This document shows positions 5,024 through 61,980 of a stretch of DNA of 64,000 nucleotides, piece by piece. The stretch comes from Minisyncoccota bacterium. Lineage in GTDB: Bacteria > Patescibacteriota > Minisyncoccia > Phycocordibacterales > JABMNX01. The notes under the pieces were generated by a model that was not told where the DNA came from, did no database searches, and saw nothing but the letters and a program-made list of their open reading frames with translations. Made by a program: the position numbers and the translations under genes. The stretch lies in contig OZ244961.1 of NCBI GenBank assembly GCA_965222715.1, positions 140,609 through 204,608 on the forward strand, read 5' to 3'. Position 1 is the first letter of the stretch; each line of letters starts with the position of its first letter.

Positions 5024-5542
5024 ATGGCAACATCAGGTATTTCTACAGGTCCTTCAATAGATAAGGCTGAGAAAGATAAACTCTTTTACTTCGTAACCAC
5101 CATTGTGGTTTTTCGTGAAAGTGATCAGAAGTGCCTTATCTTAAAACGCGATAAGAATGACGATGTGTATCCTGGGAAATGGGCACTTCCTGGTGGGCGG
5201 CTTGCTTGGAGCGACATTAATCTCTCAAAACCTGATTCTGTTGAAGGGGATGTAGAGAACTTCAATCGCCCTCTAGAGAATCATGTTGAGAGTATTGTTA
5301 AAGAAAAGGCAGGAATTGAAATAGATAATCGCCCACGATATCTTGAAAGTGTGTTCTTTATTCGAGGAGATGGCACTCCGTCAGTACTCGTACGGTTTGC
5401 AGTAACCTATCAAAGTGGAGAGGTAGAACCACGTGAAGAATTTACCCACCATGCGTGGGTGGGTGAAGAGGAAGTGGGAGACTACGATTGTATTAGTGGT
5501 ATTGATAGAGATATTGTACGAACCATTAAATTATTTTCTTAA
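5024..5542 (+). CDS. NUDIX hydrolase (tandem paralog 1)
   Basis: 172 aa; GG(R/K)L...E..RE..EE.G Nudix-box-like segment; shares the N-terminal DKLFYFV motif with the next gene. Confidence 0.55.
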   Translation: MATSGISTGPSIDKAEKDKLFYFVTTIVVFRESDQKCLILKRDKNDDVYPGKWALPGGRLAWSDINLSKPDSVEGDVENFNRPLENHVESIVKEKAGIEIDNRPRYLESVFFIRGDGTPSVLVRFAVTYQSGEVEPREEFTHHAWVGEEEVGDYDCISGIDRDIVRTIKLFS

Positions 5543-5553
5543 CATAAAAAACT

Positions 5554-6072
5554 ATGCAAGCTAAAGAAATAAGTATTGAGAAGGCAAAAAAAGATAAACT
5601 CTTTTATTTTGTCGCAAACGTGGTGGTGTATAACCCTGAGAATAATAAGTGTCTCATCTTGAAGCGTCACGAGAGAGAAGTGGCACATCCAAACAAGTGG
5701 GCAGTTCCCGGAGGAAAGCTTGAATGGCAGAACCTTGATATTAACAACCCAACGAGAATGAATGGTGACGTTATTGATTTTGAAGATGCTGTTGAAGATC
5801 TTTTGGTTCGAGAGACGAAAGAGGAATCAAATGTTTCTATCGAGAAAAAACTGCACTACATAAACAGCGTTGCATTCATTCGCCCTGATGGCATTCCGGT
5901 TGTGTTGGTAAAATTTGCTGCAAAATATACTGGTGGAGAAGTTGTGCTTGAAGAAGGAGGCTTCACTAATTTTGCATGGGTTGATGAAAAAGAGGTAGCG
6001 GAATACGAATGTATTGATGGTGTACAAGAAGAGGTGCGAGAAACCATACAGCACTTCAAGAAACATAACTAA
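5554..6072 (+). CDS. NUDIX hydrolase (tandem paralog 2)
   Basis: 172 aa, same length and collinear similarity to the 5024-5542 product; Nudix box RETKEESNV. Confidence 0.55.
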   Translation: MQAKEISIEKAKKDKLFYFVANVVVYNPENNKCLILKRHEREVAHPNKWAVPGGKLEWQNLDINNPTRMNGDVIDFEDAVEDLLVRETKEESNVSIEKKLHYINSVAFIRPDGIPVVLVKFAAKYTGGEVVLEEGGFTNFAWVDEKEVAEYECIDGVQEEVRETIQHFKKHN

Positions 6073-6074
6073 CT

Positions 6075-6971
6075 ATGGCGACAGTCTATACACATAAAGA
6101 TAGCAATATTAGAAAGACGTGGTTTTTAATGCTTACGTTTTTCTTGGTAGTGGTAGGAGTTGCATGGAGTTTTTCATACATTCTTGAGAGTCCAGTCATC
6201 CTTTGGGTTGCGGTTATTTTTAGTGTACTGATGAATGTTGGCGCATACTGGTACTCAGATAAGTTGGTCCTTAAAATGTCAGGTGCCGAACCCGTCTCTC
6301 GTGAATCGCACCGAGAACTATGGAATATACTTGAAAACCTCTCTATTACCGCCGGGCTGCCAATGCCAAAACTCTATATTATTAATGACGCAGCACCAAA
6401 CGCATTTGCAACAGGTCGTGATCCAGAGCATGCAGTTGTTGCAGTGACCACCGGATTACTTTCTATGCTTGATAGAAACGAGCTTGAGGGGGTAGTTGCG
6501 CACGAATTAGCGCATATTGGAAATCGTGACATGTTAGTGATGACAGTGGTAGTAGTACTTCTTGGTTTTATCACGCTTCTTTCTGATTTCTTTTTGCGGA
6601 TGACCATGTTCGGTGGGAATAATAGTGATCGTGATGGTCGTATGCAAATCATAATGGTTGTTGCAGGACTCGCACTTGCCATTCTCTCACCGATTATCGC
6701 AAAACTCATTCAACTTGCTATCTCACGGAAGCGAGAGTTTCTTGCTGATGCATCAGGTGCACTTCTAACTCGCTATCCTGAAGGGCTTGCCTCAGCACTT
6801 GAGAAGATTAGTGGATACAAAGAGCCGATGCGACGAGCAAACCATGCGACAGCACACCTCTTCATCTCAAACCCGTTTGGGAAAAGTACGAGAGGAAAGT
6901 TTTTGAATACATTATTCATGACCCACCCACCCACAGAAGAGCGGATTGCTGCGCTGCGAAGTAGCAGCTAA
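6075..6971 (+). CDS. htpX: zinc metalloprotease HtpX (M48 family)
   Basis: 298 aa, four TM segments, HELAHIGNRD HEXXH motif. Confidence 0.85.
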   Translation: MATVYTHKDSNIRKTWFLMLTFFLVVVGVAWSFSYILESPVILWVAVIFSVLMNVGAYWYSDKLVLKMSGAEPVSRESHRELWNILENLSITAGLPMPKLYIINDAAPNAFATGRDPEHAVVAVTTGLLSMLDRNELEGVVAHELAHIGNRDMLVMTVVVVLLGFITLLSDFFLRMTMFGGNNSDRDGRMQIIMVVAGLALAILSPIIAKLIQLAISRKREFLADASGALLTRYPEGLASALEKISGYKEPMRRANHATAHLFISNPFGKSTRGKFLNTLFMTHPPTEERIAALRSSS

Positions 6972-6975
6972 ACTC

Positions 6976-7004
6976 TTGACGTACTAGATGTATAGAAGTA
7001 TAAT
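6976..7004 (+). promoter_or_regulatory. sigma70-type promoter (TTGACG-17-TATAAT) preceding GC-rich unit
   Basis: TTGACG 6976-6981, TATAAT 6999-7004. Confidence 0.4.
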
Positions 7005-7011
7005 CCTCGTT

Positions 7012-7315
7012 GGTTTAGTTTGGTTTACATAGAGGCTTCAAGAAAGGGGAAGTGACAAATGGGTGCGACTGTTGAGGTTATTGTAAAGAGGCGTTTCGGA
7101 AGGGATGAGCGAAAGGTGGCTCAGAGACGGGCGGCTCGTCCGTGTGTACCGAGTTCGATCCGGAACGTCAGACCAGCAAGAATCGCAACCTCGGGGGTTG
7201 TCAGTGCGGCGGCCAGGATGGCAGGTGTCGCAAGAGTCCGCGGCATATGAAACATAAGCCGGACTGGATGCGCCAGTACTAGGGGGCACAATCACGAAAT
7301 ATCACAAAATACATG
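7012..7315 (+). ncRNA. GC-rich ~300-nt transcription unit of unknown nature (candidate structured ncRNA, or Arg-rich 63-aa small ORF 7059-7250)
   Basis: bounded by promoter 6976-7004 and terminator 7316-7350; GC far above genome background; weak resemblance to SRP-RNA helix-8 (GTCAGACCAGCAAGAATCGCAACC) not confirmable by eye. Confidence 0.25.
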
Positions 7316-7350
7316 GGGGCGGTTTGAGATAACTGCCCCTTTTGATTTGT
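7316..7350 (+). terminator. rho-independent terminator (GGGGCGG...CTGCCCC + T-run)
   Basis: GC stem followed by TTTTGATTTGTTTTTT. Confidence 0.6.
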
Positions 7351-7403
7351 TTTTTAAATTCTCATAACCAATTCTCTTAGTTCGGGATGGATTAGGATAT
7401 ATA

Positions 7404-7432
7404 TTGACTATTTAATCAAAATATTATATAAT
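7404..7432 (+). promoter_or_regulatory. sigma70-type promoter (TTGACT-17-TATAAT) for the GGDEF gene
   Basis: TTGACT 7404-7409, TATAAT 7427-7432; AGGAGG RBS 7467-7472 then ATG 7481. Confidence 0.5.
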
Positions 7433-7480
7433 TAAATTTAGATCTAGTCAGTATACTCATGCTACGAGGAGGTGTACATT

Positions 7481-8155
7481 ATGAGTGACAGTACCGCTAT
7501 TCCGCGTGTTGGAGATATCTCTGAGCGCGAGCTCGAGAACCTTCCGCACAAAACTCTGGTCGCGTTCGCACTGCGTGCGCAGTCGTTGGCAACGATCGAC
7601 GACATGACCCAGATTCTGAACCATCGCGCGTTCGAAGAAGAGGCCACTCGCCACTTCAACCGTATGAAGCGTAATGGTGATGAAGGGGTGATGCTTCTTC
7701 TGGACATCGACCTCTTCAAGAGGGTTAACGACACCTACGGCCACCTCGGCGGTAATGAGGTGATCAAAAAAGTTGCCAGCATCATGGAGGCATGTACTCG
7801 GCCCAGCGATCTCTGTGGACGCTATGGTGGGGAGGAGTTCATCATCTTCCTTCCCAATACCGGTAAGCAAGAAAGCAAGCTGGTCGCCGAGCGGATCCGC
7901 ACCATGGTCGAAGGGTCCACGGTGAAGTTCGAATCCCACGACATTTCATGCACGGTGAGTATCGGCCTCGCACTTCTTTCTGATGCGGAAGATCTCGAAG
8001 GCCTGATAGGTTCGGCCGACCGAGCGCTCTACAAGGCAAAAGGCGGAGGTCGGAATCGTGTCGTCACGGCTGATGCGAATCTCAACGAAAAGCGTCGCTT
8101 TACTGGAAGCAGCGATCGTCGTGGTCAAGATGTTCCGGATCGTCGGAAATCCTAA
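7481..8155 (+). CDS. diguanylate cyclase (GGDEF domain), GC-rich, likely horizontally acquired
   Basis: GGEEF active-site motif, RxxD I-site (RPSD) five residues upstream, conserved DxLT..NRR-like segments; codon GC well above neighbours; track start 7472 is a GTG inside the RBS, so ATG 7481 is preferred. Confidence 0.8.
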   Translation: MSDSTAIPRVGDISERELENLPHKTLVAFALRAQSLATIDDMTQILNHRAFEEEATRHFNRMKRNGDEGVMLLLDIDLFKRVNDTYGHLGGNEVIKKVASIMEACTRPSDLCGRYGGEEFIIFLPNTGKQESKLVAERIRTMVEGSTVKFESHDISCTVSIGLALLSDAEDLEGLIGSADRALYKAKGGGRNRVVTADANLNEKRRFTGSSDRRGQDVPDRRKS

Positions 8156-8367: not shown

Positions 8368-8455
<88 letters not shown>

Positions 8456-13346: not shown

Positions 13347-13680
13347 TAGCTTGTATTGGGTAGTTACTGGATATAGTTTCTATATCTAGAGGAAAGTCCG
13401 AACACGTCCACGTAAGTGGAGAAGGGTAGCGGGTAACACCCGTCTAGGGCAACCTAAGAGGTGCGAGCAGAGACGCCTAATTCGAAAGATGAGGGACTCC
13501 TTCGGGAGTAGCTCTGGTGGAAACACTAGAAGTGAAACGGCTAAATCCTTACCTACGTGCAAGGCCGTGCTGAGTTTAACTCAGAGTGCCGCTTGAGGTG
13601 TACAGTGATGTACATCCCAGATAAATGACTACCGTCGTCATTCGTGGCGATACAGAATTCGGCTTATAGATACAAGTGCA
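13347..13680 (+). ncRNA. rnpB: RNase P RNA (bacterial type A)
   Basis: GGAAAGTCCGAACAC P4 strand, AGGGCAACC-type internal segment, 3' ACAGAATTCGGCTTATAG matching the conserved ACAGAAcCCGGCUUA; P1 pairing GCTTGTAT/ATACAAG; P3 hairpin 13362-13386. Confidence 0.8.
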
Positions 13681-13690
13681 ACATATGGTA

Positions 13691-40475: not shown

Positions 40476-40612
40476 AAAAATGTGTGAGAGGTGCTGTGCT
40501 ACTGAACAATGTCTCTAGAGCCTTTCTTCGTATCAGTAGGGTTAGCAGCACTTCTCGCTAACAAAAAACCCGCATCTACGGGGTAGCAGTACTATACTTT
40601 GCTGGTGCATAA

Positions 40613-40657
40613 AAGTCAAAAGTAAAACCGCCCCAAGCACTTCTGCGCTTGGGGCGG
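40613..40657 (-). terminator. GC-rich intrinsic terminator for the GC-rich secreted-protein gene
   Basis: minus-strand CCGCCCCAAGC gcagaagt GCTTGGGGCGG followed by TTTTACTTTT. Confidence 0.6.
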
Positions 40658-40710
40658 GGGTTGAACGGGAACGACGATTTGATCGTCAGAGAGACTTCGG
40701 CACCGGCCGA

Positions 40711-41229
40711 TCAGGATGCGATCGTCAGACCGCTCCAGCCGCCGGACAGCAGGGTCGTCTTCAGCAACAGGCCGGACGTACCGGAAGTGTCGATGAAGTC
40801 GTTGTTGGTGTCGAACGCCGCGACCTCCAGCGCGGAGGGCGGCATCTTGGCCAGGCCGGCGGTCGTGCCGACGTTCAGCTGATCGAAGTCCATGAAGGCG
40901 CTCACCTGGTCGAGATCGTGGATCACGACGTTCGGCGGGTTGCCGATGTCGGCGCCGTCGGAATACAGAAGCCACTGGGTCCGGTCGAAGTCGGACAGAT
41001 CGCCGATGTCGGCCAGCATGGTCTGCTGGCGCGCGGCCGGCGTCGTCGAGTCGTTGGTCGTGACCGAGCAGTCGAACGCCGCGACCTCCACCGCGGTGCC
41101 GTTCAGGCCGATGTCGACGTCGAGCGCATTGCAGTCGTTACTGGCGAGCGCCGCGTTCGGCGGTGCCATGGCGACGAAACCCAAGATGGCGGCTGCCATC
41201 AGCGGGGTCATGAAGAAACGTTTCCTCAT
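40711..41229 (-). CDS. secreted hypothetical protein with internal EVAAFD repeat, GC-rich (likely horizontally acquired)
   Basis: 172 aa from ATG 41229 (GGGAG RBS); signal peptide MRKRFFMTPLMAAAILGFVAMAPPNAALA; about 63% GC versus about 39% background. Confidence 0.55.
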   Translation of the reverse strand: MRKRFFMTPLMAAAILGFVAMAPPNAALASNDCNALDVDIGLNGTAVEVAAFDCSVTTNDSTTPAARQQTMLADIGDLSDFDRTQWLLYSDGADIGNPPNVVIHDLDQVSAFMDFDQLNVGTTAGLAKMPPSALEVAAFDTNNDFIDTSGTSGLLLKTTLLSGGWSGLTIAS

Positions 41230-41377
41230 TCGCTTTTCTCCCATTCGAGTGTGAAGAACAGTGCCTCACTGTTGAGACCTGCCCAGTGTATCATATAAAG
41301 AAATATTGTCAAGTCCTCACATATGTGGTGTGGAAAACAACTTTATTACTTAAGAATGTGTGTAAAATGAAAGAAAT

Positions 41378-60693: not shown

Positions 60694-61980
60694 TCAACAC
60701 TTCAAACCAAGTTCCTCGACAACGATACGCCGCACTTCTTGCGCAGGATCATCGGCGTTGATGATTTGTCTGCCAGAGACGATTGCGTTTGCGCCAGCTT
60801 CCATTGCTTCAGTTGGGGCCATCACACGTTTTTGGTCGTTCGTTTCAGCTTCGGGGGAACGAACTCCTGGGGTAACTCCAAAGAGATCAGGATATTTCCC
60901 CTTAACTTTCCCAATCTCTTTGGGCGAACAGACGATACTGCCGACATTGACTGCGTCGACAAGCTCTACGAGACGAAGAACTTGCGTCATCGACTTGCGG
61001 CCAAAAATTTCACCACAGTCATCGTCGCTGAGGGATGTGAGCACCGTTACGGCAAGAGTTTTGATACCGTGCGGGTGGAGCATATCCACTGCCTTTTGCA
61101 TCATCGCTCGACCGCCCGATGCATGGATCGTTAGCGCCCATGGATAGAATTTGGGATCCATGTCGATGATATGTTGGCAGTAGTTCCCGATCGTGTTGGG
61201 TATGTCATGCAGCTTCGGGTCGAGCATGACAGGACCGTACACGGCCAAGTCTTCAGCGATGGCAAAGCCCTCTTTGAGGAGCAGGTCGTTGACCTTGAGG
61301 CCACAACCTGTTCCTTGGAGTGAGGAAGCCAGCTGGAGCGCTGTTTGACGATTCATTCCATCAAGCGCCACAATGACTTTTGGATCTTCGTGGCCAATTG
61401 GAACGAAGATCTCTTTCCGAACGTCGTGCAGCGTTGCACCAGCCCAGACGTCCATATCTACGCCGTGTTCTTGGAACATTTGTTGCCACCCCTGCTCGCG
61501 ATCAACAAGGACCACAAGTATTGGTGTTGCACCAGCGGCGCGGATTGCATGATAAGCATCCAGTTTGGATGCCCCGTCGGTAATCACGTCGTCGAGGATG
61601 GCGACGCGTTCTCCGGCAAAGATCTCACCGATCAACTTAGCATTCCCGACTCGGCCGCTCTTCTCAGTTTCTCGGATAGTGGCATACGGAATACCGGTCA
61701 TGTACGAAACAACACCGGCGATACCACTTACCGAAGAAGGAACCTCAACAAATCGATCGACGTCGAGTCGTCGAAGAGCGTTGGCGTAAATGCGTGCCAA
61801 CGGTCCAGTTGATTCCGGGGCCGAGCGATGGTCACGTATGTTGATGTAGGTGTCGGTCGTGCCACCTTTTTTGAGTGGCAGACCTCTTGAAGGGTCGTAT
61901 TTCAACAACCCAGGATGAGATCGGATGAGCTGAATTGCGGCCCGTTGTTCAGGTCGCGTGAGAAATGTCACATGCTCCAC
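60694..61980 (-). CDS. bifunctional orotate phosphoribosyltransferase / orotidine-5'-phosphate decarboxylase (PyrE-PyrF fusion), GC-rich
   Basis: 428 aa: N-terminal PRTase (VAILDDVITDGAS), C-terminal OMP decarboxylase (VIVALDG...LKVND); GC about 53% versus about 39% background. Confidence 0.75.
   Translation of the reverse strand: MEHVTFLTRPEQRAAIQLIRSHPGLLKYDPSRGLPLKKGGTTDTYINIRDHRSAPESTGPLARIYANALRRLDVDRFVEVPSSVSGIAGVVSYMTGIPYATIRETEKSGRVGNAKLIGEIFAGERVAILDDVITDGASKLDAYHAIRAAGATPILVVLVDREQGWQQMFQEHGVDMDVWAGATLHDVRKEIFVPIGHEDPKVIVALDGMNRQTALQLASSLQGTGCGLKVNDLLLKEGFAIAEDLAVYGPVMLDPKLHDIPNTIGNYCQHIIDMDPKFYPWALTIHASGGRAMMQKAVDMLHPHGIKTLAVTVLTSLSDDDCGEIFGRKSMTQVLRLVELVDAVNVGSIVCSPKEIGKVKGKYPDLFGVTPGVRSPEAETNDQKRVMAPTEAMEAGANAIVSGRQIINADDPAQEVRRIVVEELGLKC

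Follow-up and report, generated by a model that had tools for sequence, protein, structure and literature searches.

A GC-rich, promoter- and terminator-bounded unit between htpX and tRNA-Ser that probably encodes a small, very basic protein

Just downstream of the htpX gene of a patescibacterial genome lies a GC-rich unit of about 300 nt with a promoter and a terminator of its own, and the question arises whether it specifies a structured RNA or a small protein. An earlier note, made by reading the letters of the DNA, had offered both answers. We thus examined the unit within its window, by which we mean the whole 64-kb stretch of DNA analysed, and compared it with the corresponding interval in related genomes. 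The best matches of the window's htpX are metagenome-assembled genomes of Patescibacteria (Paceibacteria, Kaiserbacteria-like), and the GC content of the whole window is 42%.

The unit and its surroundings

The gene order is LemA, two NUDIX genes, htpX, the unit, a GGDEF gene and tRNA-Ser. The features from htpX onwards are as follows.

6075..6971 (+): htpX, an M48 zinc metalloprotease gene (Pfam Peptidase_M48, E = 3.8e-33); upstream anchor of the slot
6976..7004 (+): sigma-70-type promoter TTGACG-17-TATAAT with 11/12 consensus matches; begins 5 nt past the htpX stop
7011..7058 (+): 5' UTR of ~48 nt, with a Shine-Dalgarno (SD)-like AGGGGA at 7045-7050, 8 nt 5' of the ATG
7059..7250 (+): ORF of 63 codons; predicted protein MGATVEVIVKRRFGRDERKVAQRRAARPCVPSSIRNVRPARIATSGVVSAAARMAGVARVRGI, pI 12.0, about 6.8 kDa
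7251..7314 (+): 3' UTR of about 64-65 nt; the other units described below have 9-20 nt between stop and terminator
7315..7350 (+): intrinsic terminator GGGGGCGGTTTGAGATAACTGCCCCT plus a T-rich tail; 10-bp stem with 6 G-C pairs at 7315-7340
7404..7432 (+): promoter TTGACT-17-TATAAT for the GGDEF gene, 11/12 consensus matches; 3' of the unit's terminator
7472..8155 (+): GGDEF diguanylate-cyclase gene (Pfam GGDEF, E = 5e-44)
8368..8455 (+): tRNA-Ser (GGA); downstream anchor of the slot

Promoters matching at least 11 of the 12 consensus positions occur five times in the 64 kb, counting both strands, versus 2.2 ± 1.4 times in shuffled sequences, and two of these five bracket the unit (6976-7004 and 7404-7432). 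Transcription of the unit is predicted to start at about 7011. The promoter, the strong terminator, the GC-rich body of about 300 nt between them and the 63-aa reading frame with its AGGGGA ribosome-binding motif had all been pointed out in the earlier note, and all are indeed present; the body has a GC content of 54-62% (100-nt windows, 7050-7300) against the 42% of the window, and the + strand is composed of 0.34 G and 0.19 C. The product is also arginine-rich as described there, but the figure of about 25% Arg was slightly high, as Arg accounts for 13 of 63 residues (21%) and Arg plus Lys for 24%. The ORF at 7059-7250 is already annotated as a gene in NCBI/ENA (P0001).

On the opposite strand, an ORF of 85 codons with a GTG start spans the unit (7038-7295, -; length p = 0.019 versus shuffles). 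It has neither promoter evidence nor a counterpart in the other five units, and is probably just a consequence of the high GC content.

Directly 5' of htpX, the two NUDIX genes are tandem paralogues (5024-5542 and 5554-6072); this pair is kept in the related loci L001 and L161, and L168 has one NUDIX gene. The probable start of the GGDEF gene is the ATG at 7481, preceded by GAGGAGG. The GC content at third codon positions (GC3) of this gene is 0.61 versus 0.35 ± 0.10 across the window genes, and its product is only 46% identical to the syntenic counterpart in L001, despite 88% identity of the htpX proteins; the GGDEF gene is thus either fast-evolving or replaced. Elsewhere in the window, 40526-41325 forms a GC island of 64-69% inside the 42% GC genome, and a minus-strand ORF within it (40711-41244; 177 aa, GC3 0.89), with the signal-peptide-like N-terminus MGEKRMRKRFFMTPLMAAAILGFVAMAPPNAALA, looks laterally acquired. 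Another minus-strand ORF with raised GC (60694-61980; 428 aa, 53% GC, GC3 0.53) encodes what we take, by eye, to resemble an orotate phosphoribosyltransferase/OMP decarboxylase fusion.

Tests for a structured RNA

We then investigated whether the unit could be a non-coding structured or regulatory RNA, either a lineage-specific sRNA or a divergent RNA of the 6S, SRP or tmRNA kind, with the ORF incidental. Such an RNA would fit a discrete, promoter- and terminator-bounded unit with a GC content that is high whatever the GC of the genome, as is the case for stable RNAs, and with an excess of G over C on the + strand (0.34 versus 0.19). The high GC3 and the lack of homologues of the window ORF also point in this direction. 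However, the scan against Rfam that the earlier note had proposed (SRP_bact, tmRNA, 6S, riboswitches) returned no relevant match, even at E ≤ 10. At the gathering thresholds of Rfam 15, the 64-kb window yielded RNase P RNA and 12 tRNAs, with nothing at 7000-7350; with relaxed filters and E ≤ 10, the region 6900-7500 gave four chance-level matches to unrelated sRNA and snoRNA families, scoring 13-16 bits versus gathering thresholds of 45-80 bits. The loci of the relatives, scanned at gathering thresholds, likewise contained only tRNAs and RNase P. The RNase P RNA of the window (13348-13682, +) is of bacterial class A, a full-length model match of 128 bits with shortened peripheral helices.

As for the individual families, the SRP RNA models (RF00169/RF01854) were unmatched in the window at gathering score and in 6900-7500 at E ≤ 10, and the loose resemblance to SRP-RNA helix 8 that had been noticed by eye is accompanied by no covariance-model match at all. 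ARAGORN found no tmRNA in the window, and RF00023 was also unmatched. There was no Rfam match for 6S RNA (RF00013), and the minimum free energy (MFE) structure of the unit is multibranched and not rod-like, although the exclusion of 6S is incomplete because the model may lack sensitivity for Patescibacteria. The c-di-GMP-I and c-di-GMP-II riboswitch models had no match in 6900-7500 at E ≤ 10.

Folding of the unit gave a similar picture. The + strand folds better than the minus strand (MFE z-scores of -2.47 and -0.65), as would be expected of an RNA gene, but the value falls to only -1.55 when the terminator is removed, and 9 of 100 shuffles then fold as well as the unit. The many short GC helices remarked on in the earlier note are therefore no more than the base composition gives. 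Folding with homologues, as also suggested there, was done with RNAalifold on the six units; only the terminator helix was supported, which is a weak negative, as the alignment is poor at such divergence. A more closely related pair, L037 and L167, could be compared directly: relative to the predicted fold, their substitutions keep six pairs and break five, with no compensatory change, and the energy of L167 threaded on the fold of L037 is no better than that obtained with the same changes at random places (p = 0.33).

A structured RNA thus finds no Rfam match and no significant fold, and the relatives have in common neither sequence nor structure past the terminator. Furthermore, all of the syntenic units retain a long + strand ORF and an SD-like motif, with the ATG spacing fixed in five of the six, and the L037/L167 pair evolves as a protein gene and not as a helix-constrained RNA. 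We consider a non-coding RNA quite unlikely.

The htpX - tRNA-Ser slot in relatives

The relatives come from GTDB species representatives and JGI metagenomes that were scanned with htpX as anchor; this provided 160 loci, in which small-ORF units were sought by promoter, GC and ORF. The closest relative from the metagenome scan with htpX was no nearer than 72%. In most relatives, tRNA-Ser comes right after htpX or after a variable insert, and in Paceibacteria this htpX/tRNA-Ser interval is a hotspot for insertions. Partial copies of the 5' end of tRNA-Ser occur in L005 (5043-5069), L156 (3925-3940) and L037 (5305-5322); other insertions in the slot include a GIY-YIG-like ORF (L156) and an extra NUDIX gene (L019, 4895-5397), and L058 carries duplicated htpX 3' fragments there (1190-1375).

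The closest relative, L001, whose htpX protein is 88% identical to that of the window, has the same layout of promoter, unit of ~300 nt, terminator, second promoter, GGDEF gene and tRNA-Ser. Neighbouring proteins of the two genomes are 65-83% identical, indicating that the genomes are fairly diverged. The two units gave a local alignment score equal to the shuffle mean, and nhmmer and blastn searches with the window unit found nothing in the 160 related loci. Nevertheless, units of the same geometry were present 3' of htpX in L001, L011 (and the near-identical L168), L037 (and the 85%-identical L167), L036 and L067. Together with the window, these make six distinct lineages among 147 informative ones, namely the window and 146 loci, six of which are strain copies identical to L001, and htpX in the unit-bearing lineages is only 60-88% identical.

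The shared geometry extends to each of the expression signals. A promoter at the htpX stop (TTGAC-N17-TAnnnT) is also found in L001, L011, L037, L067, L167 and L168, and L036 has only a -10-like element overlapping the htpX 3' end. All six units carry a G-rich SD-like motif, GGGG(A) or AAGGA, 6-9 nt 5' of the ATG; in L167 the motif is AAGGAG, kept although the UTR is 23% diverged. The distance from the htpX stop to the ATG is 88 nt in the window, 90 in L001, 91 in L011, 92 in L037 and 91 in L067, and 45 in L036. The ORFs span 61-79 codons, and their products have a pI of 10.2-11.3 in the five other units and 12.0 in the window. With its promoter at +5 nt, ATG at +88 nt, 63 codons, pI of 12.0 and terminator, the window unit has the geometry of the set, apart from the gap between stop and terminator, which is 9-20 nt in the other units versus about 64-65 nt here.

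This comparison also bears on a possible cis-regulatory role of the unit in GGDEF expression, in which it would form a leader (a c-di-GMP riboswitch, for instance, or a peptide-leader attenuator) and the terminator would be its expression platform. A diguanylate cyclase gene does follow directly 3' of the unit in the same orientation, with a terminator closing the unit, and c-di-GMP riboswitches (RF01051, RF01786) are often found 5' of GGDEF and EAL genes. However, besides the failure of the riboswitch models at E ≤ 10, the GGDEF gene has its own 11/12 promoter at 7404-7432, past the terminator, and therefore the unit is not its leader; the same holds in L001, where the GGDEF promoter is TTGACA-17-TATAAC. 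Moreover, the two elements occur independently: in L011, L036, L037 and L067 the unit is followed by tRNA-Ser with no GGDEF gene, and L002, L040 and L050 have a GGDEF gene after htpX with no unit between. The leader idea was rejected on account of the intervening promoter and the units lacking GGDEF, and we regard it as highly improbable.

We then asked if the ORFs bear signs of coding. When the longest + strand ATG-ORF of each unit was compared with 1000 dinucleotide shuffles, the p-values were 0.011, 0.021, 0.026, 0.023 and 0.015 for the other five units and 0.053 for the window, and Fisher's method combined the six to p = 7e-6, whereas the minus-strand ORFs across the six units had no consistent excess length over shuffles. 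The combined value is optimistic, because L037 and L067 surfaced in screens that required an ORF, but L037 was recovered by a promoter scan too, and L001, L011 and L036 were found by ORF-independent searches. A clear signal came from L037 and L167, whose ORFs differ by 27 substitutions in 216 nt (12.5%) with no indels, distributed 5/5/17 over the three codon positions (binomial p = 0.0015). Read in frame, this ORF has a dN/dS of 0.167, compared with 1.32 and 1.75 when the two alternative frames are used, and the htpX of the same pair has a value of 0.033; the leader and 3' region are 20-23% diverged, with indels. These results showed that the L037/L167 protein is under purifying selection. Since the pair carries a coding signature and does not preserve the structure, this kind of unit is a protein-coding gene. 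Contigs in Logan carrying the L001 ORF were all 100% identical, and are therefore uninformative on selection.

For the window, codon position 1 is G-rich and T-poor, like that of the genome's real genes, and position 2 is odd, with A at 0.11 and G at 0.34. Its GC3 of 0.53 exceeds the 0.35 ± 0.10 of 48 long window ORFs, just as the small ORF of L037 has a GC3 of 0.62 versus 0.26 for the htpX of the same genome, and the GC of the units is 50-62% regardless of a genome GC of 38-62%. The amino-acid composition is no explanation for this, because third positions are concerned. Recent lateral transfer is disfavoured because it predicts recognisable similarity between lineages, and none is present. 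So high a GC3 is not usual in a gene that is inherited vertically, and it leaves some small room for a constraint at the RNA level.

The proteins themselves have diverged extensively. The window ORF retrieved only itself from 5.8 billion clustered proteins, and when 1.84 billion representatives were searched in full with HMMER, the sole addition was a repetitive protein of 527 aa, matched in eight stretches, which we took as a compositional match and rejected as a homologue. Pfam and NCBIfam at E ≤ 10 assigned none of the six small proteins (P0001-P0006) to a family, with two irrelevant sub-threshold matches. Among five of the small proteins, jackhmmer failed to recover one member from another, and in leave-one-out HMM searches the omitted member ranked from ~970th to 6400th of 29,277 segments. 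No significant match was obtained when the small ORFs were run against all loci with tblastn, and one apparent match, at L011 2017-2262, was discarded as it falls inside GroEL. The homology of the small proteins is argued from position and weak motifs, because neither the HMMs nor jackhmmer link them. These motifs comprise 10/27 identities between the window and L011 proteins (E = 0.025, weak), a common C-terminal RKHKGxL in L001 and L037 (E = 0.007, weak), and an N-terminal pattern M-x-x-V-V ... [KR][KR]GG, for which a post hoc permutation test gave p = 0.006 for the whole set and p = 0.05 when the window was set against the others. AlphaFold2 run on the single sequence predicted two helices, with a pLDDT of 62 and a pTM of 0.27 that are too weak for a structure search. 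A literature search on small proteins in Patescibacteria found nothing relevant.

Of the six ORFs, that of the window convinces least, given its marginal length p-value, the longer antisense ORF, the long 3' UTR and the low-complexity Arg/Ala/Val composition. It could accordingly be transcribed and yet non-functional, as a decayed or frameshifted copy of a slot gene or as a chance ORF in fast-turnover filler DNA; the slot is an insertion hotspot, and the window ORF covers a smaller share of its unit than any of the others, with an early stop, low complexity and no homologue. A look-alike of RKHKGxL can even be seen by eye in another frame of the window (KYHKIHGGGLR, which ends in the terminator loop), and the L037 protein aligns to the window DNA with z = 2.4 when frameshifts were tolerated and 1.1 when they were not. 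However, among the five frameshift-tolerant tests for a remnant of the L001 or L037 type, this best value is not significant after correction, and the L001 protein scored z = -0.7. In addition, none of the expression signals has been lost (promoter, SD-like motif, ATG position and terminator), and the codon-position composition looks coding. We thus hold a non-functional ORF to be rather unlikely.

The preferred reading and its relation to known systems

Taken together, the unit is probably a single-gene transcript for a small, strongly expressed, very basic and fast-evolving protein in a conserved htpX - tRNA-Ser slot. The comparative evidence thus favours the microprotein that the earlier note had offered as its second answer, with the qualification that coding in the window is argued by positional analogy only, because the ORF is an orphan. 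By this analogy, the window copy would be translated and homologous to the genes of the other units, and there is some probability that the window gene belongs, in divergent form, to the slot's gene set.

Expression would proceed as follows. From the promoter 5 nt past the htpX stop, transcription would begin near 7011, giving a ~48-nt leader in which AGGGGA, 8 nt 5' of the ATG at 7059, would bind the ribosome. Translation of the 63 codons would yield a very basic protein (pI 12) with two helices, predicted at low confidence, and the terminator at 7315-7350 would end the transcript ahead of the GGDEF gene, which has its own promoter. At least six lineages of Paceibacteria would carry such a fast-evolving gene for a small basic protein in this slot, alike in promoter, leader length, ribosome-binding motif and terminator. 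As a guess from its charge and the strong stand-alone expression signals, the product may bind a polyanion, that is RNA, the ribosome or DNA.

The feature is most likely real but ordinary, namely a lineage-specific hypothetical small-protein gene that public annotation has already called. If this is right, an RNA-like GC-rich island is a small protein gene and is not to be reported as a new non-coding RNA. A fixed slot in which expression signals and a small basic ORF persist, although the protein itself diverges past recognition, would offer a test case for microprotein evolution in reduced genomes, and the 63-aa product is one that metaproteomes from groundwater might confirm. A bolder proposal is that the slot holds an undescribed class of strongly expressed, hyper-divergent basic microproteins with mRNAs of 50-62% GC and high GC3; we give this little credence, but if true it would imply not a plain orphan gene but either a dual constraint, acting on the protein and on the folding or stability of the mRNA, or a factor that diversifies rapidly, perhaps in connection with an episymbiotic lifestyle.

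Among known systems, the c-di-GMP riboswitches (RF01051, RF01786) are like the unit in lying 5' of a GGDEF gene and ending with a terminator, but the unit differs from them in matching no model, in the promoter that intervenes and in being without GGDEF in four other lineages. SRP RNA, 6S RNA and tmRNA resemble it in GC-richness, a length of a few hundred nucleotides and their own promoter and terminator, in a setting where RNase P and the tRNAs likewise stand out by their GC in a small, AT-leaning genome; the unit, however, has no covariance-model match, no rod-like 6S fold and no conserved sequence or structure. Ribosomal protein bS21 (Ribosomal_S21, PF01165) resembles the slot proteins in being small (60-80 aa), having a very high pI and being expressed from strong signals of its own, and their N-terminal M-x-x-V-x-V recalls bS21 by eye, but the likeness is purely compositional; the PF01165 profile was unmatched by all six proteins at E ≤ 10. 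Lineage-specific microprotein genes are like the window unit in being single genes of fewer than 80 codons with their own promoter, SD-like motif and terminator, and they share with the window ORF the absence of a Pfam or NCBIfam family and an annotation as hypothetical. Unlike plain microprotein genes, the slot set keeps a fixed place and leader length while its proteins diverge beyond detection, and its GC3 is decoupled from the GC of the genome.
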